Shown here one piece after another: positions 2 through 61,636 of a DNA stretch of 64,000 bases. Below the pieces are notes generated by a model. It made no database searches and was not told the origin of the DNA. It saw only the letters and a list, made by a program, of their open reading frames with translations. The position numbers and the translations under genes are program-made. Each line of letters starts with the position of its first letter. Position 1 is the first letter of the stretch. Source of the stretch: an uncultured Candidatus Saccharibacteria bacterium (GTDB taxonomy: Bacteria; Patescibacteriota; Minisyncoccia; Phycocordibacterales; DATDWN01); NCBI GenBank assembly GCA_964597675.1, contig CAZQYV010000001.1, positions 81,644-145,643 on the forward strand, read 5' to 3'.

Positions 2-460
2 GTGTGGGTAGACGGACAAATACAAACGGCGCGAGTCACTTTGGCCGCAGGTCGTTTTCCAGACAATGCAACCAACCGACCGGATATCATTATAAATAAC
101 GATTTACTCTATTCGACATATGATGGGCAAGATGTTATTTCTCTTATCGCCCAAGGGGATATAACCACAGGGCTAAACAGTGATAATAATTTACGTATAG
201 ATGCAGCTCTAGTTGCACAAAATGGCCGTGCTGGGCGTTTTTATTACAGTTCTTCATGTGGGTCAAATTATGTACGTGATTCATTAACTCTCTACGGTAT
301 GATAGCAAGTAATATCCGATATGGATTCGCATACACCGACGGTACAGGGTATGACACTAGAAATATTATATATGATGCCAATTTATTGTATGGTCCACCT
401 CCTAGTTTTCCATTGACTTCGGATCAGTATCAGACTATTTCATGGCAAGAAGTAAGATAA
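2..460 (+). CDS. C-terminal fragment of an unidentified protein; the ORF runs in from upstream of the window
   Basis: Open frame from the window edge to a stop at 460; no recognisable motifs. Confidence 0.35.
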   Translation: MWVDGQIQTARVTLAAGRFPDNATNRPDIIINNDLLYSTYDGQDVISLIAQGDITTGLNSDNNLRIDAALVAQNGRAGRFYYSSSCGSNYVRDSLTLYGMIASNIRYGFAYTDGTGYDTRNIIYDANLLYGPPPSFPLTSDQYQTISWQEVR

Positions 461-3752: not shown

Positions 3753-5486
3753 ATGAAAAAATATATTCTGCGAGAAGATATTTCAGATGAAGTTAAAAAA
3801 ATATTTTCTTCATACCCGCCACTTGTGCAAAAGTTATTGTATGCTCGAGGTATTGATGACATACAAACTGCTGAAACATTTTTACATCCAAATTATGATA
3901 CCAATGTGCACGATCCACTGTTACTCAAGGATATGAGTAAAGCAGTTAATCGTATTGTTTCTGCAATAGAAGGAAACGAGGTGATCGTGATTTATAGTGA
4001 TTATGATGCCGACGGTATTCCTGGTGCAGTTGTACTCTCTGATTTTTTTAAAAAAATTGGATATGCAAATGTAATTACGTACATCCCCTTGAGAAATGAA
4101 GAAGGATTTGGGTTAAATCGTGAAGCAATTGATACTCTTGTTTCACAAGGAGCAACCCTATTAATAACCATAGATTGCGGCATTTCTGACGTTACTGAAG
4201 TGGAGCACGCGCTGTTACACGGCATGGATGTGATCATTACAGACCACCATCTTCCTGGAAAAGTTGTACCAAATGCCTACGCGATTATAAATCCAAAACA
4301 GATTGGATGTCAGTATCCAGAAAAGATGTTATGCGGGGCTGGAGTTATTTTCAAAGTTGTGCAGGCACTTGTACAACATGAAAAAATTTCATTTCCACAT
4401 GGTCAAGAAAAATGGTTACTTGATATGGTTGGCATAGCAACACTTTCAGACATGGTTCCACTTCGTGGGGAGAATCGAGTCTTTGCTCACTACGGAATCA
4501 AGGTGCTTCAAAAAAGTCCGCGTATTGGACTGACAAAATTATTTTCATTATTAAAAATTGATAAACGATATGTAACAGAAGATGATATCGCATTCATGAT
4601 TACACCGCGTATTAATGCCGCTTCACGAATGGGTATTCCGCGTGATGCATTTCAATTACTTTCAACGACGGATGAAGTGGAGGCCGGTGCGCTAGCAGAA
4701 CACTTGAATAATAAAAATGATGAACGAAAAGGTGTGGTGGGAAGTATGGTTCGTGAGATTAAAAAAAAGATTCACGAAAGAGACGAAGAAATGAAACATG
4801 TTTTAGTATTGGGAAATCCAGAATGGAAACCATCACTTCTTGGACTGGTCGCAAATAGTTTTTCTGATGAACATAACCGCCCTGTATTTTTATGGGGAAG
4901 AGAAGGAGTAAATGGTGAATCAATTATTAAAGGATCGTGTAGGTCTGGTAATGGTGTGTCTGTTGTTCTTTTGATGGAAAAAATAAAAGATGTATTTTTG
5001 GAATATGGTGGACACCATGGAGCCGGCGGTTTCTCTGTTTCTCACGAAAATATTCACACACTCGAACAAAAATTAAATGAAGCGTATATCGAATTACAAA
5101 AAGAAAAAATAAGCGAACCAGAAAATTTTGTTGATGCTCAATTACAACTAAGTGATGTTAACTGGAATACATACGACATGATACATACGTTTGCACCATT
5201 TGGTTTTGAAAATCCAAAGCCAATTTTTTTGTTTTCCAATGTTACTGTTTCAGCTGTGAAACTGTTTGGAAAAGAAAAAAATCATTTGGAAATTAAATTA
5301 CAAGATTCATCAATATCTAATTCAGAAAAAAATAAAGAGGTGACTGCTATTGCTTTTTTCTCTGATCCAACAAAATTTGAAGTGAAGATTGAGGCAGGAA
5401 GCGTGGTTAATTTGGTTGCAACATTAGAGAAATCAAATTTTCGAAATTTTCCAGAACTTCGTCTTCGTGTTGTTGATATATTTTAG
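3753..5486 (+). CDS. recJ: single-stranded-DNA-specific exonuclease RecJ (DHH family)
   Basis: DHH motif ITDHH, DHHA1-like C-terminal region, size 577 aa. Confidence 0.8.
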   Translation: MKKYILREDISDEVKKIFSSYPPLVQKLLYARGIDDIQTAETFLHPNYDTNVHDPLLLKDMSKAVNRIVSAIEGNEVIVIYSDYDADGIPGAVVLSDFFKKIGYANVITYIPLRNEEGFGLNREAIDTLVSQGATLLITIDCGISDVTEVEHALLHGMDVIITDHHLPGKVVPNAYAIINPKQIGCQYPEKMLCGAGVIFKVVQALVQHEKISFPHGQEKWLLDMVGIATLSDMVPLRGENRVFAHYGIKVLQKSPRIGLTKLFSLLKIDKRYVTEDDIAFMITPRINAASRMGIPRDAFQLLSTTDEVEAGALAEHLNNKNDERKGVVGSMVREIKKKIHERDEEMKHVLVLGNPEWKPSLLGLVANSFSDEHNRPVFLWGREGVNGESIIKGSCRSGNGVSVVLLMEKIKDVFLEYGGHHGAGGFSVSHENIHTLEQKLNEAYIELQKEKISEPENFVDAQLQLSDVNWNTYDMIHTFAPFGFENPKPIFLFSNVTVSAVKLFGKEKNHLEIKLQDSSISNSEKNKEVTAIAFFSDPTKFEVKIEAGSVVNLVATLEKSNFRNFPELRLRVVDIF

Positions 5487-7734: not shown

Positions 7735-7998
7735 TTACGATTCTTTATATGCCCTCTTACTTTCTGCGAATATCTCTTGTATTCTCTCTTTCGGTATTCT
7801 AGTTGACATAGTGAGAGATTCACTGAGTATTTTTTCTGAAACGGGCATTGTCCCTACCAATTCTGATAAGATACACCCGATGACCGCCAACGTTTGTTCC
7901 AGTTTTTCAGCTCTTTCACCCACCATATTATCCATTGTGCTTTTGATCGGCTCAAGTTCACTGTTGCACATATGTGCCTCCGGGGAATACAGTAGCAC
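7735..7998 (-). CDS. hypothetical protein, possibly co-transcribed downstream of the YbjQ-like gene
   Basis: ORF starting 6 nt after the ybjQ-like stop; no known motifs. Confidence 0.25.
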   Translation of the reverse strand: MLLYSPEAHMCNSELEPIKSTMDNMVGERAEKLEQTLAVIGCILSELVGTMPVSEKILSESLTMSTRIPKERIQEIFAESKRAYKES

Positions 7999-8003
7999 AG
8001 TTG

Positions 8004-8369
8004 CTATTTTTTCTCTACTACGACCGCAGTTCCATATGCCAGAACTTCTGTTACTCCTTGCATTATTTCGGTGGCATCATATCGGGCACCAACCACTGCA
8101 TTTGCGCCCATCTCTTTGGCATGTTGGAGCATGAGATCAAAAGCATCAGATCTTGTTTCTTCACATAGGTCTGTAAAGAGACTTATATTTCCACCGATTA
8201 ATGTTTGTAGTCCTGCTCCAATTGACCCAATGACCGATCGTGATCGAACAATAATACCTTTTGCAACACCTTTGTTTTCGACAATGGTATGCCCTGGTAG
8301 TTCCAGCCCAGTTGTAACCATATTATGACTGACACGGTTTGTTTGTTCCATAGTATTTGTTTTATCCAT
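8004..8369 (-). CDS. YbjQ/UPF0145 (DUF74) family protein
   Basis: The sequence matches the YbjQ family pattern over its whole length; about 120 aa. Confidence 0.7.
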
Positions 8370-8449
8370 TAAAATTATTTTATGCTTTACTCCAATTTAT
8401 ATTTGTAAAAAAACCTCTTATCCTTCGTTTCATTCAGGATCTAGCAGTT

Positions 8450-9043
8450 CTATTTACTGGCTTCCATAAAATTAAGTTCTGTTTTCTTCCAGTTCAAGTT
8501 GGTAAAGTAGTCTTCGACATATTGTTTCTTTCCACTTGGTTGATAGTCAGCTACGAACGAATGTTCCCACATATCCAAAGCAATGATCGGAGTGCAGTTT
8601 TGTAACTGACCCAGATGTTGTTCATCAATCCATGCGTTTAGTAGTTGCCCGTCCATATTATCCCAATATAATATTGCCCAGCCAATACCACGAGTCATAG
8701 ATATTGATTTGAATCGTGTTAGCCACGCATCAAATGATCCAAAATCCTTTTCAATCTGTGAGTATAGTTTACTGTCAGTTTTTGGGGCAGTCGCCTCGTC
8801 TGCGAGGGAGTCAAAATAGATTTCGTGGTTTCTCATACCATTGTATTCAAATCCGAAACGTCTCTGTACTTCACCCAATGCGTAAGCGTTTTTTTCGCTG
8901 TCACCAATCATTTCCTTTATTTTTTGCAAGATAAGGTTACTGTGTTTAACATAACCAGCATATAACTTTAGGTGTTCCTCAATAGTTTTTAGAGAAATTC
9001 CAACTAATGGGCCGATATTAAATTTTTTTTCTTGGAATTGCAT
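8450..9043 (-). CDS. sodA: Fe/Mn superoxide dismutase
   Basis: SOD motifs DMWEH..Y and the metal-ligand His pattern; 197 aa. Confidence 0.85.
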   Translation of the reverse strand: MQFQEKKFNIGPLVGISLKTIEEHLKLYAGYVKHSNLILQKIKEMIGDSEKNAYALGEVQRRFGFEYNGMRNHEIYFDSLADEATAPKTDSKLYSQIEKDFGSFDAWLTRFKSISMTRGIGWAILYWDNMDGQLLNAWIDEQHLGQLQNCTPIIALDMWEHSFVADYQPSGKKQYVEDYFTNLNWKKTELNFMEASK

Positions 9044-12648: not shown

Positions 12649-15600
12649 ATGTCTCTATTCAATCGTATTCGTACCCTATTATTAATCTGTGCTCTCATCT
12701 TTGCAGGGAGTGTTGCACTGCACACCATACACGCACAGTCATCTGGCTACACACCAGTGTCAGTCAACTCTCCCACCAACACCTCACTCAAAGTGACAGC
12801 AACACCTCTAGAGTTAAACAACACCACAAACATGTGGTCCTACAAGATAGACTGGAAGAGAACACGTAATGCACAAGGTTCTATATCTATTGCAGAAGAG
12901 TCATCTCCTACAACTAAAGTCCTCTCACTCTCTCCTGCATCACAAGAGGGAAGTCAGACTGTCACACTCAAACCCTCTACTACATACAGAGTGAAGTTCT
13001 ACAGTACAACGGGATATGGTGGAACACTCATCTTGAGCAAAAAGATGACAACTCTCGCTACATCTGATGAGGATCCTGACCTAGAGGACGATGTGGTGAA
13101 TACAGATACTTCTATCACAGGTCTTCAAACGCAGATTGCATCTCTCCTTGCACAGATCAATGAACTCCGAGCACGATTAGCGGGGGGGACACCTGTGACT
13201 ACTAGCACCAGTTCAAGTCCTGCTGTTGTGACTACAACAGTATCTACAGGCACTGGGAGTTATGATCCTGCGGTGGATAACAGATCAACCAACACATTTT
13301 ACATTGCACCTAAGTCACAGGTAAAAACAGGTAGCAAACCTGCCTATTTCTTTGTGCGTATCGGTAAATATGGAAGTCAGAGCAGTGCTATATCAGAATT
13401 TAAAAATGTACCAAAAGGTATGAATGTCACTTTCTATAGGTTAGATAAAGATAGGATTGACCCTTCATGGTATTCAGGAGAGAAATTACCGGTTGATCAA
13501 TATTCATATACAGGAACTAGTTTTCCAATATTTGCGTATCTTAAATCAGTCCAACCATACCCATTGGCAAAATGGCTTGGGACGTATCAGCGTTGGTTAA
13601 AACCTGATGAAAATATGGCCAGAAGCCAATTTGGCGGACCTAATATTATTAACGACGGCACAGCTATTCTTAGGTCTGGAGAAATGGGGCTGTTAAAAGT
13701 TGATACAGATACAGATTTTACGGCTGGACCTGGGACATATACTATTACAGCAGTCGAGAGTACTAATCAAGGTTCAGATATTGCGGGACAATATAATTCA
13801 TCGGCTACGAAAAAAGAAGTAACATTTAGTGTTGTAATCGGTGATCAGGTGGCAATGTGTCTCAGTGATTTAAAGACGTGGCCAAGTCCAACAGCAAAAA
13901 ATTCTAAAACACTTCCTGATGCATTTAAACTATCTGGCGATCCTGGAAGATTTAATGATGCCTGTGATCCAAGTATTGGCGCAAATGCTTCAGGATTTCC
14001 AAATTTTACTGACAGAAAGAAGCCGTTATTGCAGGATTGTGTTACTAAAGCACAAAAACAAGCAGATGCTCTCGGTGTTCCCATGTCTTGTTCTATCATT
14101 ACAGAGGCAAGTGGTGGTTATTTCCGAGCTGGCTGTATAATCACTGGTACTGGCTATGAATTTCAAGCAGCACAATTGGTTGGAACAGGACAAGTTGGTA
14201 CAAATCAGCAGTATTCTCAGGGTAGTTGGAGAGATGTAGAGAGGACAATTCTTCAAAGACAAGCAGAAAAAGTGGCTGATCGTGGATATGTATATTATGA
14301 TAACGACTCAAATGTTTGGCGAGCAATGAATCAGACTGTAGCAGACGCACCAGCATCTTGTGATAAGTTGCTCGATGTTGATGTTAAAAGCGTTAATAAA
14401 GAATGGAATATTTCCATTCATGCTAAGTCACTGACAGAAGGTTCTGTTATTCCAATCGAAATTGTTGCACACCCATCGGTTAAATCAGTTAGTCTATATC
14501 TGCTTAAAGATTATACGAATGGTTCGAACGCAAGAGAGTGGTGGAATGATGAGTATGCCAAACTTTCATCAGCAACTTCTTGGAGTTCATGGATTGGTGA
14601 GAAAAATGCAGCTCAATCACCACAAAGAAATTTAATTGGATATCCAGAATATCATCCACAGGTTGCGTTGACTATGCAGAGAGTCAACTTGGTAAATGGT
14701 AAGGGTACAATACAGTGGACTGTTCCTTCTAAGCTTGAGCCATATCAAGAAATGGGCTGGAACCAAGGAGGACAAGGCGGTTTGCAGCCAGCCGTTCAAT
14801 ATAGTATTAGAGCGATAGCAGACAATAGTATATGGTCTGATAGTCCTAGTTTTACTATATTATCTAATACTCAATCATGTAACTTACTCGAGGGTACAGC
14901 ATGTGATTCATCAAAGGTTACTGAGTCTGTGCAGTCCGGTTCATCTGGAGGTTATGCATTATGGGTAAATGGCCGCGATTTGTATAGGTCTTTCGGTGTA
15001 ATGGGTCAAGGAGTTGCTCCTCTAGATGTTCGAATTACAACTGCTGATGCAACATATAAAACTGGAGATCCTCATCCAAGTAGTTCTGTTCCACTTCCTG
15101 TTCCAGTAACGGCAGGCAAACCAATTCAGATTTCAGGATACATGTTTAATAATTCGACCAAAAAAGTTGATATTGATCTGTTAAATATTGGCACCCCTCT
15201 GTGTCAAAGCAGTGTCAACCAAGCGTATCAAGTGTTCCATGCTTGTGAGCAAGAATATTATTCAAAACCAATAGTGACATGGTCAATTGCTCGGGATATA
15301 CCATCACGCATTATAACTGATTCATTAGGATATAATACATGGTTCTTTAATCACATCTTTACAGTACCATCTGATGCGATTGTTCCCGGTAAATACGTCA
15401 TTCGCATAACCGATCCTGATTTCTTGTATAGTTATGCTGGACAGGAGAGAGGAACAGCTATATTTGGATTTCAGGGTGGTGTAGCATTTAGTCCATCATT
15501 TGAGGTGATCGGTTCATCACAGCCTGCTACAGGACAGACGCCAACTCCGACAACACCTTCAACACCAACTAGCGCAACACCAGTTTCTAATGCTTCAGGT

Positions 15601-15882
15601 GTGGACGGATTCTCTTCAGTATGTGAATCTACATCAACCTTCTGGTTTAGAAACAACGCATCGGCATATAATCTATATCGAAACACAACAAATAATGTTT
15701 CGACTGCACAGAAAATCTTGAGTAACATATCTTATATGCCTGGGAGTAGTACGGGCGGGTATGTTGATAAACCGCAGAGAGGAACATACTTCTATTGGGT
15801 AGAAAATGTTGGAAGTACTGTAAAAGCCCCTTCTGCAAAGAATGCAATAGATGGTGTACCGGTCATGTCATGTCTCTTCTAA
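12649..15882 (+). CDS. large secreted protein, paralog A (1077 aa): signal peptide, shared Fn3-like N-terminal module, coiled coil, Thr/Ser linker, divergent large C-terminal domains ending in a second Fn3-like domain
   Basis: Signal peptide MSLFNRIRTLLLICALIFAGSVALHTIHAQ; about 110 aa module shared with the two downstream genes; Y-x-Y-x-V beta-sandwich signatures. Confidence 0.7.
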   Translation: MSLFNRIRTLLLICALIFAGSVALHTIHAQSSGYTPVSVNSPTNTSLKVTATPLELNNTTNMWSYKIDWKRTRNAQGSISIAEESSPTTKVLSLSPASQEGSQTVTLKPSTTYRVKFYSTTGYGGTLILSKKMTTLATSDEDPDLEDDVVNTDTSITGLQTQIASLLAQINELRARLAGGTPVTTSTSSSPAVVTTTVSTGTGSYDPAVDNRSTNTFYIAPKSQVKTGSKPAYFFVRIGKYGSQSSAISEFKNVPKGMNVTFYRLDKDRIDPSWYSGEKLPVDQYSYTGTSFPIFAYLKSVQPYPLAKWLGTYQRWLKPDENMARSQFGGPNIINDGTAILRSGEMGLLKVDTDTDFTAGPGTYTITAVESTNQGSDIAGQYNSSATKKEVTFSVVIGDQVAMCLSDLKTWPSPTAKNSKTLPDAFKLSGDPGRFNDACDPSIGANASGFPNFTDRKKPLLQDCVTKAQKQADALGVPMSCSIITEASGGYFRAGCIITGTGYEFQAAQLVGTGQVGTNQQYSQGSWRDVERTILQRQAEKVADRGYVYYDNDSNVWRAMNQTVADAPASCDKLLDVDVKSVNKEWNISIHAKSLTEGSVIPIEIVAHPSVKSVSLYLLKDYTNGSNAREWWNDEYAKLSSATSWSSWIGEKNAAQSPQRNLIGYPEYHPQVALTMQRVNLVNGKGTIQWTVPSKLEPYQEMGWNQGGQGGLQPAVQYSIRAIADNSIWSDSPSFTILSNTQSCNLLEGTACDSSKVTESVQSGSSGGYALWVNGRDLYRSFGVMGQGVAPLDVRITTADATYKTGDPHPSSSVPLPVPVTAGKPIQISGYMFNNSTKKVDIDLLNIGTPLCQSSVNQAYQVFHACEQEYYSKPIVTWSIARDIPSRIITDSLGYNTWFFNHIFTVPSDAIVPGKYVIRITDPDFLYSYAGQERGTAIFGFQGGVAFSPSFEVIGSSQPATGQTPTPTTPSTPTSATPVSNASGVDGFSSVCESTSTFWFRNNASAYNLYRNTTNNVSTAQKILSNISYMPGSSTGGYVDKPQRGTYFYWVENVGSTVKAPSAKNAIDGVPVMSCLF

Positions 15883-15941: not shown

Positions 15942-16330
15942 TGATATAATACACCAATGAACATATCAAAATATCTTAGTACCCCTTTACTCATCCTCAC
16001 CATCCTTCTTACTACACTCTGGAGTGTACACACCCTACACGCACAGTCATCTGGCTACACACCAGTGTCAGTCAACTCTCCCACCAACACCTCACTCAAA
16101 GTGACAGCAACACCTCTAGAGTTAAACAACACCACAAACATGTGGTCCTACAAGATAGACTGGAAGAGAACACGTAATGCACAAGGTTCTATATCTATTG
16201 CAGAAGAGTCATCTCCTACAACCAAAGTCCTCTCACTCTCTCCTGCATCACAAGAGGGTACACAGACTGTCACACTGAAACCTTCTACTACATACCGAGT
16301 GAAGTTTTATAGTACAACGGGGTATGGAGG
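15942..16330 (+). repeat. about 390 bp segment (promoter, signal peptide, N-terminal module) nearly identical to 18770..19158; a 220 bp core is also shared with 12731..12950
   Basis: Direct nucleotide comparison shows only a couple of mismatches over hundreds of bases. Confidence 0.8.
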
Positions 16331-18722
16331 AACAGTTATATTAAGCAAGAAACTTACGACATTGTCTTTTGACGATGAACAGCCAGATATTGATGCAACC
16401 TATGTGCAGATAAAACCAGCAAATATATTGCAGACACAGATAAGTGAATTACTTGCGATTATTGCACGATTACGTGCACAACTTGATGCAATATCAATTT
16501 CAACCACAACCCCTCGCATACAACCGCCACAGCCAGCCCTGTGTACTATGGAAGTACGTCTCTGTCCGGACGGTATAACTTATGTTGGACGCACAGGTCC
16601 ACAGTGTGAGTCTGCACCATGTCCTGTAAGTCCAAGTGTTCCATCAAGTCCTGTAAATGTACAAAATACGGTAGTAGTATCAAATAAAAGTGATGTCACT
16701 GTAACCAATTACCCGATGCAAATAGGTAGACCATTTAAGCAGGGTGAGATTGTGGGATATCCTAGTGTGTCGATAAATGGGTCGACTGTACTTACTCAGG
16801 CAGATGTAAAAAATCGATGGTCAGACGGTAGTGTAAAATTTGCAATACTTTCTTTTGTTCTACCGAATTTATCAGCAAATTCTACATTAACATTAGCATT
16901 TTCTAATCAATCGTCTGGTAACAATACTGCGTTGACGAAAAGCCAAATGCTTGGAACCAATTACAATTTTGATGCTCAAATAAAATTGACTAGTGGAGGT
17001 AATACAAAGATGGTATCTGCACGAGACATGCTATCCAATGGTGATTATGTGGTATGGACGAGTGGACCCGTGGCCACAACGATTATTCTTGCCGATCATT
17101 CTGCTGATAGAAAATATGATATGGGATTTGATTCTCACAAATCATTTAGACCAATTTTCGAAGCAACATTTTGGCCAGCAACAAATCAAGTAAGAGTAAG
17201 ATATATTGGTGAAAATAGTAATACAAAATCACTCCAAGATATACAATATGACCTTGCTTTGACACTTGGTTCAGTAAATCCAAAGTCTGTGTATAGTCGA
17301 GCAGGGTTGGCCCATCCTTTGCTCACTCGTTGGACAAAAGTTTTTTGGCTAAATGGTGCACCAAATCAGAAAATCAATGTCGATAATAATTTAGCATATC
17401 TCAGTCAGACAACATATTTTCCAGTGTTTGATATGACAGTTAGTGTTCCGGATGAAGTTGTAGCCTCTGCATATAGTTCTTGGCAAAATAATCCACACGA
17501 CCTATACGATTCTGGTGGTTGGACAAAATATATGCCAACAACTGGCGGAAGGTCAGATATTTCACCATTTACCAATTGGACAATGCGTTGGTTATATACA
17601 GGTGATTGGCGTACACGAGAGATTGCTCTGGGAATGGGTGATTTGGCTGGAGCATGGCGCTTGCATGCTCGTGAAGGAGACTCAACAAAAAAAATAGATA
17701 AAGCACAGACTCAATCTGGACTTACTTTGCCGATATCGGTGTATGCATATCCAAATCTATGGCTGCCCGACAACAACGGTTCCTATGGACAATTAGCAAT
17801 TCCGAACGCTCGGGTGGTTGATAACGGCTGGGTGGCTGATAATGCTCACCAACCGGATCCATTTTATGCCGAGTATGTGCTGACTGGTGATCATTGGTAT
17901 CTAGAAGAAGCGCAGATGTGGGCTAGTATGAGTGCCTTGGCAAACTGTCCCGGAAGTGCACAGTGGTGTCGCGGTTCGGGAATGGCGGGACTACAAGATC
18001 AGGTACGTGGTGATGCATGGGCATTCCGTAATCGTATGAATGCTGCTTTCATCACTCCAGATGATATGCAGACACTCAAAAACTTTTATACTAATATGGT
18101 CAATGATGTTTTGGCTTTTTGGGAAGGGAAAGCTGGAATTACTGGCACGGGGTTTCAAAATACTACTGAATGGAAATGGGCAAACACAAATACGTACAAG
18201 GTTGCACGAACAAACCCGCTCCATTTTTGGTCAATTGATGGTGCTCCACCATACTATTATGCTCCATGGCAGCAGTATTATCTTTTGACAGTGCTTGGAA
18301 TAGCAAAAGAAAGGGGATATGCGACCCGTCCGTTATTTGATTTTCTCAGTACTATGCTAACAAAACAAATATCAGCTGAGCGGTATAATCCATTCAATTT
18401 GGCATCATATTCTATTCAGGTTTCGGATGCAAAAGGAAATTGGTACCCTACATGGGGAGATGTACAGGCGGCAAACGTTGACCGTGACTATATGAAGGCA
18501 ACTGGTGATTTTTTAGCAACTAATAATGGTGCATATTATCCAATACTTGCAACAGCCGCTTCTTCATTTATGACATCTACTTCAGATGGTATGTCTACAT
18601 GGAATTTCTTGAAGACTAATGTGAAAGATAGTTCATTACGTAAATTACTAACCGTACCGGGTTGGTATACGAGTTACTATGATGGTACTGGGGAACTTGG
18701 ATGGAATATTATTCCACGTTGA
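15957..18722 (+). CDS. large secreted protein, paralog B (921 aa): same N-terminal module, a 4-Cys CTME[VA]RLCPDGITYVGRTGPQC module, then a divergent C-terminal region of unknown (possibly carbohydrate-active) function
   Basis: N-terminal 130 aa nearly identical to paralogs A and C; TATAAT 6 nt upstream of the ATG; C-terminal Trp-rich region. Confidence 0.7.
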   Translation: MNISKYLSTPLLILTILLTTLWSVHTLHAQSSGYTPVSVNSPTNTSLKVTATPLELNNTTNMWSYKIDWKRTRNAQGSISIAEESSPTTKVLSLSPASQEGTQTVTLKPSTTYRVKFYSTTGYGGTVILSKKLTTLSFDDEQPDIDATYVQIKPANILQTQISELLAIIARLRAQLDAISISTTTPRIQPPQPALCTMEVRLCPDGITYVGRTGPQCESAPCPVSPSVPSSPVNVQNTVVVSNKSDVTVTNYPMQIGRPFKQGEIVGYPSVSINGSTVLTQADVKNRWSDGSVKFAILSFVLPNLSANSTLTLAFSNQSSGNNTALTKSQMLGTNYNFDAQIKLTSGGNTKMVSARDMLSNGDYVVWTSGPVATTIILADHSADRKYDMGFDSHKSFRPIFEATFWPATNQVRVRYIGENSNTKSLQDIQYDLALTLGSVNPKSVYSRAGLAHPLLTRWTKVFWLNGAPNQKINVDNNLAYLSQTTYFPVFDMTVSVPDEVVASAYSSWQNNPHDLYDSGGWTKYMPTTGGRSDISPFTNWTMRWLYTGDWRTREIALGMGDLAGAWRLHAREGDSTKKIDKAQTQSGLTLPISVYAYPNLWLPDNNGSYGQLAIPNARVVDNGWVADNAHQPDPFYAEYVLTGDHWYLEEAQMWASMSALANCPGSAQWCRGSGMAGLQDQVRGDAWAFRNRMNAAFITPDDMQTLKNFYTNMVNDVLAFWEGKAGITGTGFQNTTEWKWANTNTYKVARTNPLHFWSIDGAPPYYYAPWQQYYLLTVLGIAKERGYATRPLFDFLSTMLTKQISAERYNPFNLASYSIQVSDAKGNWYPTWGDVQAANVDRDYMKATGDFLATNNGAYYPILATAASSFMTSTSDGMSTWNFLKTNVKDSSLRKLLTVPGWYTSYYDGTGELGWNIIPR

Positions 18723-18784
18723 TAGTACTAAAATTTTTGTTTAGATGGATATTGTAGGATGTGTTTATGTGTTATAATACACCA

Positions 18785-20173
18785 ATGAACATATCAAAAT
18801 ATCTTAGTACCCCTTTACTCATCCTCACCATCCTTCTTACTACACTCTGGAGTGTACACACCCTACACGCACAGTCATCTGGCTACACACCAGTGTCAGT
18901 CAACTCTCCCACCAACACCTCACTCAAAGTGACAGCAACACCTCTAGAGTTAAACAACACCACAAACATGTGGTCCTACAAGATAGACTGGAAGAGAACA
19001 CGTAATGCACAAGGTTCTATATCTATTGCAGAAGAGTCATCTCCTACAACCAAAGTCCTCTCACTCTCTCCTGCATCACAAGAGGGTACACAGACAGTCA
19101 CACTGAAACCTTCTACTACATACAGAGTGAAGTTTTATAGTACACCAAACTACACAGGCACTGCTATTTTGAGTAGGAGAATGACAACACTTTCAATATA
19201 TGATGAAGAGCCAGATGTTGAAAATATCATACCCCCTGTTTCCATGGATTCAAGTATAACTAATCTTCAGTCACGTATCTCTGAATTGTTACGTATGATA
19301 GAACAATTACGAGGACAAATTGGTCGCAGTGTATCTTCGTCTTCTACCGCAACAAGTACAGCCACTACAACAAATCCTCTAATTTCACTTCCGCAACAAC
19401 CTGTAGCATGCACCATGGAGGCACGCCTGTGCCCAGATGGTATTACATATGTAGGACGAACCGGCCCGCAGTGTGAATTTGGAGCATGTCCTGTAAAAAA
19501 ATGTGATACTGGATTACTCTACATGCCATCATGTTCTGGCGTACCTGTTCAAAATCCAAACACATGTGAAATAACGTGTCAGTCTAGTGCACAGTCAGCA
19601 CGAGTAACAATTACAACAAACTATAGCGAGCCACTTCTTTTGGGTTCATATAGTAATTTGTCATTTCAGGTATCATTGCCACAAAATGTAAATCCAAATC
19701 CTGACTATACATTCAAGTTAGTCGGTAGTATTCCTGGTATGATTTTTGAAAATATGTGGTGTGACCAAGTGGGTTATGGAGGAATCTGTCCTAAAATGGT
19801 AAGTGTATCAAGTGTCATGTATCTTGACGGCAGACCAACTCAAGTGGGAATATATCCCATTACTCTTGTTGCCACAGATCAATATGGTAATACAGGATCA
19901 AAAACTATAAACATAGAAGTGGTTAGTTTGAAACCGTTACCACTTATTACTCAATGTCTCTATGCTGCACCACCAGATGGTTGTAGTTATATTCCCGGAC
20001 CGAATTATAATCCTCAGACAACATGCGGTATGATTCTTTCCTGTAATGCAGAGACAGCATGTCAAAATGTTGAAGTGGGTGTAATGCGAACTTGCTTGAC
20101 AGGATATGTTTCAAAATTAAATCCAAAAACGTGTATATATGAGTGTGCACCTGTTGGTAGCAGTTCAGAATAG
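18785..20173 (+). CDS. secreted protein, paralog C (463 aa): same N-terminal module and Cys module, with a Cys-rich C-terminal region
   Basis: Start at MNISKYL, identical to paralog B including the upstream tataatacacca; the ORF track starts 24 nt earlier at 18761. Confidence 0.7.
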   Translation: MNISKYLSTPLLILTILLTTLWSVHTLHAQSSGYTPVSVNSPTNTSLKVTATPLELNNTTNMWSYKIDWKRTRNAQGSISIAEESSPTTKVLSLSPASQEGTQTVTLKPSTTYRVKFYSTPNYTGTAILSRRMTTLSIYDEEPDVENIIPPVSMDSSITNLQSRISELLRMIEQLRGQIGRSVSSSSTATSTATTTNPLISLPQQPVACTMEARLCPDGITYVGRTGPQCEFGACPVKKCDTGLLYMPSCSGVPVQNPNTCEITCQSSAQSARVTITTNYSEPLLLGSYSNLSFQVSLPQNVNPNPDYTFKLVGSIPGMIFENMWCDQVGYGGICPKMVSVSSVMYLDGRPTQVGIYPITLVATDQYGNTGSKTINIEVVSLKPLPLITQCLYAAPPDGCSYIPGPNYNPQTTCGMILSCNAETACQNVEVGVMRTCLTGYVSKLNPKTCIYECAPVGSSSE

Positions 20174-51519: not shown

Positions 51520-51775
51520 AAAGAACAAAAGCTAAAATTTATTATTTGAAAGATAAGAAAAATACACTTACATAAAAAAAGACCCCCAATGAAGACGAGC
51601 TTCACAAGGGTTCTTTTCGTAGTGATATTAAAAGTATATCAAACTGTTCGTGAATGTCAAATAAATATTTTTCGAGTACAAAAAAGCCCTATTTCTAGGT
51701 GTTGTTTAGGGGTAGTGGCGGCAGTTCGCCCTTTGCCTTAAAATTTTCTCGTCAGAAAATTTAATATTGTGGGAG

Positions 51776-52090: not shown

Positions 52091-52193
52091 ATACAGTCCC
52101 TCGAATCCCTCGGGACACTCGACTCGTAAGTACCATCTTGTTTTTAGGTGGTTTACCACGAGCGAGTTCCAAGTAATCTTGGGACGAGTCGAG

Positions 52194-52588
52194 TGGAAGT
52201 GGCGGCATCGAAGCCGCGTCCATAGAAGGAACTAAAATGTGTCTACAGCGTGTAGTTTGTTTTATATTTAATCATCTATACTATGTAACAAACAAAATGT
52301 ATAAGTGACGATTCTCAATGTTTCAAACGATGAGTCGAGACACACCCATGTTCTAGCTAAAAATATATCAATCAACCTCCCGTATTAGCGTCAGGGAAGC
52401 GACCGTCTCCTTGGCGTCGGCTTATGCTCGAGCGAAAGAGAAAGCAAAGTCATTCATACTAAAGTATGGTGATGTTGCTTTTGAAGCTACAGTATTTGCA
52501 TGTAGGCTTTTCTGTACCGTTTTAGGAGAGCACAGAACTCCGCGTTGCGCAGATCAATTCTTTTCTATGTCAAAACCTGTCACCCCCG
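52194..52588 (-). ncRNA. ssrA: tmRNA (ssrA), one-piece, about 395 nt
   Basis: Immediately downstream of smpB; the 5' GGGGGTG pairs with the 3' CACTTCC-A giving a G3-U70 wobble and an A73 discriminator; T-arm GCGGC-TTCGAT-GCCGC; candidate tag frame from about nt 88 ending ...NDFAFSFARA-stop; the exact tag start is unresolved. Confidence 0.6.
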
Positions 52589-56067: not shown

Positions 56068-56141
56068 GCGCGTGTAGCTCAGTTGGTTAGAGCTCGGAGC
56101 TTATACCTCCGTGGCCGGGGGTTCGAGTCCCTCCACGCGCA
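56068..56141 (+). tRNA. tRNA-Ile with anticodon UAU (reads AUA)
   Basis: Cloverleaf: acceptor GCGCGTG/CACGCGC, D stem GCTC/GAGC, anticodon stem CGGAG/CTCCG with loop CTTATAC, T arm GGGGG-TTCGAGT-CCCTC. Confidence 0.7.
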
Positions 56142-56145
56142 CAAG

Positions 56146-60699: not shown

Positions 60700-61430
60700 T
60701 TTTGAGTAGGAGAGAGCGAGAATTTTTGCCTCGAAATTTTCAATTTCGTCAAAAGGAGCGAGAGTTTCTCACTCGACTTAAAAATTTCTCGTCAGAAATT
60801 TTTAGTCTGTGCACTGACTCGCGTCCTGCTTTTGCTAAAGCAGGAATCGCTCCGTCGTTCGAATCTCGACACAATCTGCTAACAGCAGATTGTTCTCTCT
60901 CCGTAAACAAAAAGCGCCTTTCGGGATTTTGTTGGCGGAGAGAGCGAGAGTTTCTCCTACAATTTTTTCTCGTCGCCACTCGAAAAAATTCTAGGCGCCA
61001 GATGTGCGACAAACTCTGCTAAGTTTGTAGACCGCACATCTGTTCGAATCTCGCGCGCATAGCTTCGCTTTGCTTCTCTCCGCAAAAAGAAAACCCGTTT
61101 CGGGGTCCTTTTTGCGGAGAGAGCGAGATTCGAACTCGCGGTTCCAATTAAGGAACGACGGTTTAGTAAACCGTTGATTTAAACCACTCATCCATCTCTC
61201 CATATACTCGCTATGCTCGAATGGAGCTGCTTTCGCAGATCGATGGATTCGTGGTCGGTGATTACACCGGCTCGGTGTGAAGTAGTTCACACCATCGCCC
61301 ATCTCATCCATCTCTCTGTATACTCACCTGAACATTAGGAATATAGCATTTTTCTGTGGATTGATAAAGTTTTTTTGCGGAGACGGGGAGAGTTTCTGCC
61401 TCGAAATTTTCAATTCCGTCAAATTGAAAA
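60700..61430. repeat. tRNA-fragment repeat region: three copies of a tRNA 3'-end core (gcggagagagcgaga and gcggagacggggaga classes), each followed by gtttctgcctcgaaattttcaatt[c/t]cgtcaaa-type flanks, plus a partial duplicate of the 5' end of the 61115-61201 tRNA
   Basis: Copies at 60708-60752, 60945-60990, 61377-61424 and 61290-61318. Confidence 0.6.
61115..61201 (-). tRNA. type II (long variable arm) Ser-like tRNA with apparent anticodon ACU
   Basis: Acceptor GGAGAGA/TCTCTCC, G73 discriminator, anticodon stem ACGGT/ACCGT with loop TTACTAA, variable arm GTTCC/GGAAC, T arm GCGAG-TTCGAAT-CTCGC. Confidence 0.55.
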
Positions 61431-61525
61431 TTTCTGGCCACCGGTTTGTCGACAAGCCCTGCTGGGCTAGTAAACCGACAAACCGTTCGAATCTCCCACG
61501 TAAAGCTTCGCTTTACTCGTTCCTG

Positions 61526-61615
61526 CGGAGACGGGGAGATTCGAACTCCCGAGGCCTTTTAAAGGGCCTGCCTCTTTAGCAAAGAGGTACGTTAGACCAC
61601 TCTGACACGTCTCCA
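61526..61615 (-). tRNA. tRNA-Ser (GCU)
   Basis: Acceptor GGAGACG/CGTCTCC, G73, anticodon stem CCTCT/AGAGG with loop TTGCTAA, long variable arm AGGCC/GGCCT, T arm GGGAG-TTCGAAT-CTCCC. Confidence 0.75.
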
Positions 61616-61636
61616 TAATCTTTCTACGGTATCATA

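Follow-up and report, generated by a model that had tools for sequence, protein, structure and literature searches.

What kind of event copies the 3′ end of a tRNA gene into the DNA beside it? The question is raised by a stretch of 64,000 nt (hereafter the window) from an uncultured Candidatus Saccharibacteria bacterium (assembly GCA_964597675.1, contig CAZQYV010000001.1, positions 81,644–145,643 of the forward strand), in which the last 15 nt of two serine tRNA genes recur close to the genes themselves. The best explanation is that these recurrences mark the edges of three small insertion units without cargo, which belong to a non-coding family residing at the 3′ ends of tRNA genes in Patescibacteria.

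An initial annotation of the window had placed two type II serine tRNA genes on the minus strand, and both were called by ARAGORN as well as by Rfam: tRNA-Ser(GCU) at 61526–61614 (Rfam tRNA, 44.5 bits) and tRNA-Ser(ACU) at 61115–61201 (57.4 bits). Each has G73 and lacks an encoded CCA; the window also contains a tRNA-Ile(UAU) and a tmRNA. The end of tRNA-Ser(ACU), GCGGAGAGAGCGAGA (61114–61128), has an exact second copy at 60935–60949 and a third, with two mismatches, at 60707–60721 (three matches compared with 0.05 expected; three or more were reached in none of 100 shuffles). Likewise, the end of tRNA-Ser(GCU), GCGGAGACGGGGAGA (61525–61539), is repeated exactly at 61377–61391 (0.03 expected). 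The recurrences that had been noticed are thus real, although the coordinate given for one of them, 60945, belongs to the end of the copy at 60935–60949. A flank said to be common to all of them is complete in two copies (exact at 61392, 28 of 32 positions identical at 60722), whereas the third (at 60950) shares only GTTTCT and the general hairpin layout. Assembly artefacts, which had been named as a possible refutation, do not account for the repeats, because the same architecture is present in more than 30 independent contigs.

Each 15-nt recurrence proved to be the first 15 nt of a unit of ~150 nt and forms one strand of the helix that closes it. The window holds three such units (el1, el2 and el3) and one truncated unit. 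Every unit contains one direct and one inverted copy of the 3′ end of its neighbouring tRNA, the latter overlooked in the initial annotation, arranged around a conserved three-way junction with two hairpins. On the plus strand, a unit starts with the reverse complement of tRNA positions 60–73, followed by the invariant GAGAGTTTCT; an AT-rich hairpin A (CGTC loop), the trinucleotide CAC, a long hairpin B (TGCT loop) and the invariant GTTCGAATC make up its middle; and it ends with the sense T-stem 3′ strand of the tRNA, a small hairpin Y and the acceptor 3′ strand in a sense-like copy. In el1, el2 and el3 alike, GAGAGTTTCT and GTTCGAATC are 86–87 nt apart. Because the two copies of the tRNA end, one inverted and one direct, can pair, the unit is predicted to fold into a three-way junction, and the helix that clamps it has the T-stem and acceptor-stem sequences of the adjacent tRNA. 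The folding energies of all three units lie far below those of shuffled sequences (z = −5 to −7, on both strands).

Unit el3 (61377–61523, minus strand; 141.7 bits with the covariance model described below; fold z = −6.0 to −6.6) adjoins the 3′ end of tRNA-Ser(GCU) with a 2-nt spacer. Along the plus strand, its tRNA-end repeat (61377–61391) is followed by GTTTCT (61392–61397), hairpin A (61398–61438, loop CCGTCA), CAC (61439–61441), hairpin B (61442–61485, loop TGCT), TTCGAA (61486–61491), the inverted T-stem strand TCTCCC (61492–61497), hairpin Y (61500–61516) and the inverted acceptor strand (61518–61523). Unit el2 (60933–61083, minus strand; 129.3 bits; fold z = −5.3 to −5.6) is the neighbour of tRNA-Ser(ACU), from which it is separated by a terminator-like palindromic hairpin (61085–61113) that includes a minus-strand terminator-like signal (61109–61090) and whose flanks, 61075–61089 and 61108–61122, are perfect inverted repeats. 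The el2 repeat (60935–60949) is preceded by TGG, the complement of CCA (60933–60935), and followed by hairpin A (60956–60995), hairpin B (60999–61042), GTTCGAATC (61042–61050), TCTCGC (61049–61054), hairpin Y (61057–61073) and TCTCTCC (61075–61081). The distal and apparently older unit el1 (60755–60903, minus strand; 125.5 bits) has a repeat eroded to GGAGCGAGA (60755–60763), the CGTC loop of hairpin A at 60790–60793, the TGCT loop of hairpin B at 60833–60836, GTTCGAATC at 60857–60865 and a long hairpin Y (60871–60893). Lastly, the truncated unit (60707–60754, minus strand) comprises a tRNA(ACU)-end repeat (13 of 15 positions) and ~33 nt from the start of an el3-type hairpin A, and stops right after the CGTC loop. 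A truncated unit located before the copy at 515–675 of another locus, L002, also ends past its hairpin A loop (CGTT) and has a full unit directly after it; like truncation at two unrelated loci suggests a preferred breakpoint in this loop.

The family was delineated by running a strict sequence pattern on 185,579 species-representative genomes, which yielded seven loci, 7/7 in Patescibacteria, and a looser pattern on metagenomes, with loci taken from among the matches listed. A covariance model trained on 32 copies gave 33 matches of 100–154 bits (one weak, 44) in the first 26 loci and more in fresh loci; in the 64-kb window it found no match beyond el1–el3. A pattern scan of 2.9 million viral contigs returned no match, and we rejected a phage origin on this ground. 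Several units occur per genome. Whenever a tRNA lies nearby, the unit is found 0–39 nt past its 3′ end, always in a single fixed orientation, and its arms match that particular tRNA, be it tRNA-Ser (UGA, GCU, ACU), Gln, Val, Asp, Arg (UCU, GCG), Trp, Tyr or Ile; a further neighbour is a tRNA-Asn with an intron in the anticodon loop that tRNA finders overlooked. As units stand behind tRNAs of many identities, there is nothing Ser-specific about them. The tRNA-Asn(GUU)-like gene (L009, 9755–10049, plus strand) is of note in its own right: missed by ARAGORN and Rfam, it has an insert of ~215 nt in its anticodon loop, with the unit behind it, and the insert fits the group I introns reported at tRNA position 35/36 in Patescibacteria (PMC13011429).

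Compensatory changes on both sides were found in 27 of the 32 consensus pairs. The fraction of paired alignment cells is 92.9%, compared with 64.8% after shuffling, and the covariation score is 0.707 compared with 0.188; none of 500 shuffles reached the observed score, and shifted registers collapse. The structure of the unit is under selection. Its module comes in distinct subtypes with wholly different stem sequences, which are common to the copies within one genome, and one subtype is ~96% identical in hairpin B across genomes whose PilM proteins are only 22–45% identical. The earlier suggestion that the segments are decayed elements does not agree with a conserved, covariation-supported family of structured units behind tRNAs for at least nine amino acids.

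Several other assignments were considered and rejected. Rfam 15, searched with both strands of the whole window, of the region at E-values up to 10 and of 14 other loci, matched only tRNA and tmRNA and nothing over the units even at E-values of 1–10, so that no known RNA family covers them, and a literature search found no description of the element. The open reading frames (ORFs) over the units are spurious rather than coding, since the lengths of hairpin indels are not divisible by three and the ORFs fall into clusters only via shared DNA. A guide RNA in the manner of IscB/TnpB RNAs, with a 15-nt "guide" and a GUUUCU scaffold, was dismissed because there is no nuclease neighbour, the synteny is that of housekeeping genes and the "guide" lies inside a helix. 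A T-box-like specifier, prompted by a Ser codon, AGC, in the hairpin B loop of the tRNA-sense strand, was dropped because the same loop occurs beside Gln, Val, Asp and other tRNAs.

The extent of the repeats bears on how the arms were generated. The direct repeat passes the discriminator into the genomic trailer, not into CCA; it is typically 14–18 nt long, reaches 26 and 39 nt, terminator included, in three loci, and overall ranges from about 10 to 39 nt. In four copies, CCA follows the discriminator. For all five tRNAs with a U·G pair in the acceptor or T stem, the G faces a C in the unit; the inverted arm therefore copies the 3′ strand of the tRNA and not its 5′ half, a result that also rules out a whole-tRNA tandem duplicate with an internal deletion. 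A T-loop variant of tRNA-Arg, TTCGATT, is repeated in its own unit together with a compensating change in the pairing partner. On either strand, nearly all stem pairs are Watson-Crick; G·U pairs make up 17 and 18 of 1018 cells, respectively, an equal rarity that is unlike typical structured RNAs, and A·C mismatches in the T-stem helix fall on the antisense strand in 5 of the 6 mismatched copies. In units fused to the tRNA, the 2-nt spacer is the centre of a short palindrome made up of the tRNA end and the inverted arm (for example CTTCC-GCA-GGAAG, loci L131 and L136); recombinase core sites are often palindromic. The reach of the direct repeat into the trailer, the C opposite G, the mirrored T-loop variant and the rarity of G·U pairs indicate that the tRNA-specific arms are copied from DNA.

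Comparison with relatives revealed turnover of whole units. L099, a locus whose flanking genes match those of the window at 96% identity, is without the 228-bp stretch 60722–60949, which amounts to exactly one repeat-bounded unit. The distal repeat of el2 is followed by CCA and a second hairpin spacer, term1 (60904–60932), which together match the 3′ flank of the orthologous tRNA-Ser(ACU) in L099; the tRNA-Ser(ACU) of L007 also encodes CCA and has kept the terminator. The gene in the window now lacks CCA and is followed by a hairpin different from that in L099. In the simplest reading, el2 would have been placed between the tRNA body and its former 3′ end. The proximal el2 is intact, and el1 and the fragment, which are distal, are eroded. 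The 5′ side of the same gene has a repeat as well: the first 15 nt of tRNA-Ser(ACU) with 8 upstream nt (61187–61209) recur as a 23-nt copy 116 nt upstream (61303–61325, minus strand), and a 93-nt hairpin-rich segment that includes a GAAA-loop hairpin lies inside this repeat (61210–61325, minus strand). It is exact in L099, was found only in the lineage of the window and L099, and resembles a 5′ counterpart of the 3′-side units.

Ten loci obtained via homologues of the ComF-like gene (58–63% identity) rather than via the unit pattern served as an unselected sample. They contain 16 tRNA-Ser genes, with units in only four of the ten loci. In L136, the unit is of the standard type and fused to tRNA-Ser(GCU). 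A shorter, one-hairpin variant is present in L131 as two identical units of 128 nt in tandem. In L128, a 22-nt repeat, CCA and 5 further nt included, lies 1.46 kb from tRNA-Ser(ACU), with three small ORFs between and a module beside the far repeat. In L138, tRNA-Ser(GCU) is followed by 5.1 kb, a module and repeat, 2 kb with a DUF3800 gene, an identical module and repeat, and the SecY operon; the 5.1-kb insert encodes a large serine recombinase and a rolling-circle Rep, and a diverged tRNA-end-like stretch ending in CCGCA precedes each module. The layout, with its two identical modules, is best read as a two-unit array that was already in place when two large elements integrated into its repeat copies; on this reading, the repeats act as additional attachment sites. 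Together with L006, where two small ORFs lie between two units, L128 and L138 have inserts of 0.9–5 kb between the tRNA or unit and the next module and repeat. The cargo ORFs of L128 and L006 had no Pfam match.

Several unit-bearing loci harbour additional genes and duplications of note. In L004, identical tRNA-Ser(UGA) genes (2858–2947 and 5391–5478, minus strand) lie 2.5 kb apart, one with an encoded CCA and no unit, the other without CCA and with a unit and two successive terminators. LAGLIDADG homing-endonuclease genes stand beside tRNA-Ser genes in L128 (4745–5818, minus strand), where the ORF overlaps the tRNA-Ser(GCU) gene, and in L136 (7606–8649, minus strand). L138 has an AbiEii toxin gene and a DUF6922 gene between its pilus genes and pilM (7930–8827, minus strand); AbiEii-type nucleotidyltransferase toxins target tRNA acceptor ends, including those of tRNA-Ser. 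Another unit-bearing contig, L111, shows a borderline Rfam match to group II intron domains D1–D4 directly past the 3′ end of its 16S rRNA (294–365, plus strand; 35.3 bits, threshold 35), and group II introns have been reported to be absent from Patescibacteria (PMC13011429).

We take the units to be DNA-level insertion units because they are patchy in relatives, form tandem arrays, account for the 228-bp difference from a 96%-identical relative and have displaced a CCA-bearing tRNA end. The initial annotation had suspected insertion at tRNA 3′ ends, and the genomic flank within the repeats, the displaced CCA and terminator, and the arrays and kilobase-sized inserts bear this out at the level of DNA events; that an integrase mediates them is unproven, as no mini unit has a recombinase beside it and the large elements that carry one look like separate insertions. 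In tRNA direction, a unit consists of the tRNA's own last 14–22 bp (position 60 to the discriminator and some flank), a 2-nt spacer or a palindromic terminator-like hairpin, the inverted tRNA-end copy broken by hairpin Y, TTCGAA, the conserved two-hairpin module of ~95 nt and a second direct copy of the tRNA end, after which the former flank of the tRNA resumes. As a single strand, the inverted and direct copies pair, clamping the three-way junction with a helix of acceptor- and T-stem sequence. In the mechanism that we propose, new units would enter beside the tRNA, displacing older ones outward, by site-specific recombination within the repeated tRNA end, with the recombinase supplied in trans and possibly acting on a folded single-stranded form whose helix would recreate the target tRNA-gene duplex. 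The additional tRNA ends would then serve larger integrative elements as landing sites. For its core, that is DNA-level units recombining within the repeated tRNA end with newer units entering beside the tRNA, we consider the odds slightly favourable.

A number of observations weigh against this proposal. The tRNA-sense strand folds to the lower energy in 33/33 copies (mean −45.0 compared with −39.0 kcal/mol), and unpaired bases are 78% purine on that strand and 78% pyrimidine on the other. Between the genomes with divergent PilM, the module is as conserved as the tRNA itself; like the strand asymmetry, this is typical of functional RNA. No recombinase, transposase or Rep adjoins any mini unit, and the neighbours in the window are housekeeping genes (RecG, GT2 glycosyltransferase, ComF-like, PilM). 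The large serine recombinase of L138 was considered as a partner of the mini units and rejected; a homologue is absent from the window and the other unit-bearing loci searched, and the junctions suggest independent insertion, so that its element reads better as a separate insertion than as the autonomous parent of the units. Neither a free circular form, nor an empty and a filled site at one locus, nor a transcript was observed in this computational analysis. Finally, the proposal does not explain how both the direct and the inverted arm come to match a new tRNA species.

The strand asymmetry and the conservation would be expected if the units were instead functional, tRNA-like RNAs made in tRNA orientation by read-through or co-transcription, "top half" mimics with the T-loop opened to a three-way junction, which would be handled by RNase P, RNase Z, the CCA-adding enzyme and a dedicated partner, the DNA repeats being by-products of copying. 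The predicted lowest-energy fold recovers the shared architecture more often on the tRNA-sense strand, where an acceptor 5′ strand, a hairpin (Y) at the place of the class II variable arm and a T stem whose loop holds the module are followed by the tRNA's own 3′ end, a trailer and often a terminator. Flanking genes of the window lie on the same strand, some copies have only the 2-nt spacer between them and the tRNA, several are followed by a terminator of their own, and the four copies with CCA after the discriminator fit as well. However, patchiness among close relatives ill suits an essential RNA, a terminator-like hairpin usually intervenes between tRNA and unit, neither strand has an excess of G·U pairs, the acceptor-like helix is often imperfect with pairing that runs over the discriminator into the flank, and the identity to the tRNA reaches flank that an RNA mimic would not need. 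We regard this explanation, a rival or perhaps an additional layer, as unlikely on balance. An antisense small RNA from the opposite strand, whose first 15–19 nt would pair with the pre-tRNA 3′ end and trailer and be masked by the internal sense copy, appears very improbable. Its 5′ end would be exactly complementary to tRNA positions 60–73 and the trailer, GTTCGAATC and the T-stem strand follow in tRNA-like order on that strand, and some AT-rich loci have weak −10-like hexamers just upstream and a T-run hairpin downstream; but the window scan found no promoter-like site on that strand, none lies upstream of GC-rich copies, the unpaired bases are pyrimidine-rich, the lowest-energy fold misses the shared structure in several copies, and the A·C mismatches described above fall on this very strand.

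Two further explanations were weighed. If the repeats were passive, decaying att scars of integrase-borne islands that had lost their cargo, the remaining sequence would be unconstrained. Direct repeats of tRNA 3′ ends are the classic footprint of such islands, and larger inserts, one with a recombinase, do occur at the same tRNA-Ser genes. Decay cannot, however, give 27 covarying pairs, invariant junction and loop nucleotides and a fixed 86–87-nt spacing at more than 30 loci and nine tRNA identities; it leaves the inverted copy that tracks each tRNA without account, and the alignments are not composed of near-identical recent copies from a single source. We accordingly give this explanation very little credence. 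Local replication errors alone, that is template switching at two palindromes (the TTCGAA of the T-loop and the terminator hairpin) with the module spread by gene conversion and without mobility, would yield the direct-inverted-direct layout as the outcome of a double switch. Such errors would also suit the long, near-perfect palindrome that runs from the inverted copy through the terminator to the tRNA 3′ end (L047 and, in the window, 61075–61089/61108–61122), the perfect tandem units and the subtypes common to the copies of one genome. The same ~95-nt module, with hairpin Y inside the copied end, at many unrelated tRNA genes is left unaccounted for, as are near-identical subtypes in genomes with 22% PilM identity, and we consider the explanation improbable.

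Viewed as insertion units, the elements are best described as miniature, structured and neighbour-templated, and the nearest known kind is the tRNA-gene integrative element. Genomic islands at tRNA genes are bounded by attL and attR repeats of the tRNA end. As in the pSAM2-type AICEs among these, the direct repeat of the units runs from the T-loop region past the tRNA 3′ end, the tRNA stays complete because a new 3′ end replaces the original, which is displaced to the far side, and tandem arrays occur; larger elements with recombinase and rolling-circle Rep, as in L138, likewise use the same tRNA-Ser. The units thus show the att-type repeat and the presence/absence polymorphism of such elements and lack the integrase gene, a recombinase gene being found at unit repeats only in the 5.1-kb insert of L138. 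Unlike the islands, they measure 130–190 bp, contain no integrase or other gene, hold the att core a second time in inverted orientation, together with a conserved two-hairpin module whose stems covary, and use one module family for at least nine tRNA identities. Folded single-stranded recombination sites, such as integron attC and the attP(+) of CTX phage, are imperfect palindromes of 60–150 nt whose structure is conserved over sequence. The units resemble them as non-coding imperfect palindromes of conserved structure whose folded stem may recreate a target-like duplex. As in integron arrays, the newest unit would lie beside a fixed site, and small ORFs stand before some units (L128, L006) in the manner of cassettes. 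In contrast to attC, the units have no GTTRRRY core, their conserved sequences being GAGTTTCT and GTTCGAATC; their stems copy the tRNA gene end and change with the tRNA; their loop and junction nucleotides are conserved, which the variable loops of attC are not; and no intI-like or Xer-type gene adjoins them.

Miniature inverted-repeat transposable elements (MITEs) of bacteria, such as Correia and ERIC, are likewise non-coding, ~150 bp long, present in several copies per genome and strongly folded, with inverted-repeat ends. The terminal repeats of the units are instead copied from the neighbouring tRNA and insertion is confined to tRNA 3′ ends; we rejected this class because the arms differ between copies and equal the neighbouring tRNA end, and the duplication can be anything from about 10 to 39 bp long. 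On the tRNA-sense strand, the predicted fold shares with plant mitochondrial t-elements, mascRNA and the tRNA-like domain of tmRNA an acceptor-like helix stacked on a T-stem-like one and the absence of an anticodon arm, whereas the helices of the units are exact copies of the adjacent tRNA stems, a three-way junction replaces the T-loop and the discriminator is often paired. Group I introns of Patescibacteria tRNA genes reside inside the anticodon loop and fold over ~200 nt or more (PMC13011429); the units lie outside the tRNA, have a core of ~95 nt and do not match RF00028, and were not assigned to this class. A bolder and rather doubtful idea, offered tentatively, is that the units represent a protein-less class of tRNA-anchored cassettes, which would rebuild the tRNA-gene target as a helix in folded single-stranded DNA (an att-site mimic) or in a tRNA-like RNA, spread between tRNA identities by re-templating both arms, and capture larger elements with their extra tRNA ends, as an integron-like platform in the Candidate Phyla Radiation.

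The second question posed by the locus is whether tRNA-Ser(ACU), whose anticodon loop, UUACUAA, was read correctly at the outset, is a working gene. A mutated duplicate or a pseudo-tRNA had been contemplated; the gene is full-length and, at nearly twice the Rfam gathering threshold of 29, outscores its GCU neighbour. Twelve independent contigs carry it, six of the ten unselected loci among them; the loop never varies, and all stems (acceptor, D, anticodon, variable and T) show compensatory changes. The gene is conserved and intact rather than a pseudogene or a one-off mutation. In the window, 23 long ORFs together contain 152 AGU, 45 AGC and 106 AGA (Arg) codons, and AGY is also covered by a tRNA-Ser(GCU), which the window shares with most of the relatives sampled. 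A tRNA-Ser(ACU) with inosine in position 34 would misread AGA. Because AGU outnumbers AGC 3.4:1, the most likely role of tRNA-Ser(ACU) is that of a dedicated AGU decoder with A34 kept unmodified, which is also the best fit among the options originally listed. An engineered ACU tRNA in E. coli reads AGU and not detectably AGC or AGA, and natural tRNAs with unmodified A34 are described as very rare (PMC11066159); our literature search found no report of a natural tRNA-Ser(ACU). Mycoplasma tRNA-Thr(AGU), a natural A34 tRNA that stays unmodified (PMC11066159), is similar in having a wobble A outside tRNA-Arg(ACG) in a reduced, AT-rich genome, but A34 of tRNA-Ser(ACU) serves a split codon box (AGN) in the presence of tRNA-Ser(GCU). 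A promoter-like site identified by consensus scan (TTATCA-16-TATATT preceded by TG; 61340–61367, minus strand) lies between el3 and tRNA-Ser(ACU).

Elsewhere in the window, the motif that had been reported near an NYN gene, TTTCTCGTCAGAAA, is present at 51745–51758, where it forms the apical part of a 9-bp hairpin whose loop is CGTC. This stand-alone hairpin (51741–51762), situated between the NYN gene and a small minus-strand ORF, is nearly identical to the top of el1 hairpin A and is one of only 19 perfect hairpins (stem of at least 7 bp, 4-nt loop) in the window; the covariance model calls no element there. The tRNA-Ile(UAU) gene (56068–56142, plus strand; 70.9 bits) accompanies frequent use of AUA in the window ORFs (215 codons), a codon that most bacteria read with a modified CAU tRNA. 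The tmRNA (52191–52587, minus strand; Rfam 77.8 bits) has an unusually long predicted tag peptide, ANTVASKATSPYFSMNDFAFSFARA. GGAGAGAGTGAGA occurs three times ~3 kb apart (12923, 16231 and 19059, minus strand), in three consecutive large ORFs (12649–15882, 15957–18722 and 18761–20173) that are probably paralogous genes.

A conserved, natural tRNA-Ser(ACU) beside tRNA-Ser(GCU) is a rare case of natural A34 in a split codon box, and it makes testable why A34 is generally avoided and whether the bacterial wobble-adenosine deaminase TadA leaves this tRNA unmodified. Patescibacteria have genomes of ~1 Mb. If the units found in them are mobile, a non-coding element borrows its target sequence in both orientations in order to fold and creates integration sites for larger elements, and to our knowledge no smaller site-specific insertion units exist. 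If they are RNAs, they would constitute an undescribed family of tRNA mimics. Either way, the units will confuse the annotation of tRNAs, the prediction of islands and the calling of att sites in these phyla.

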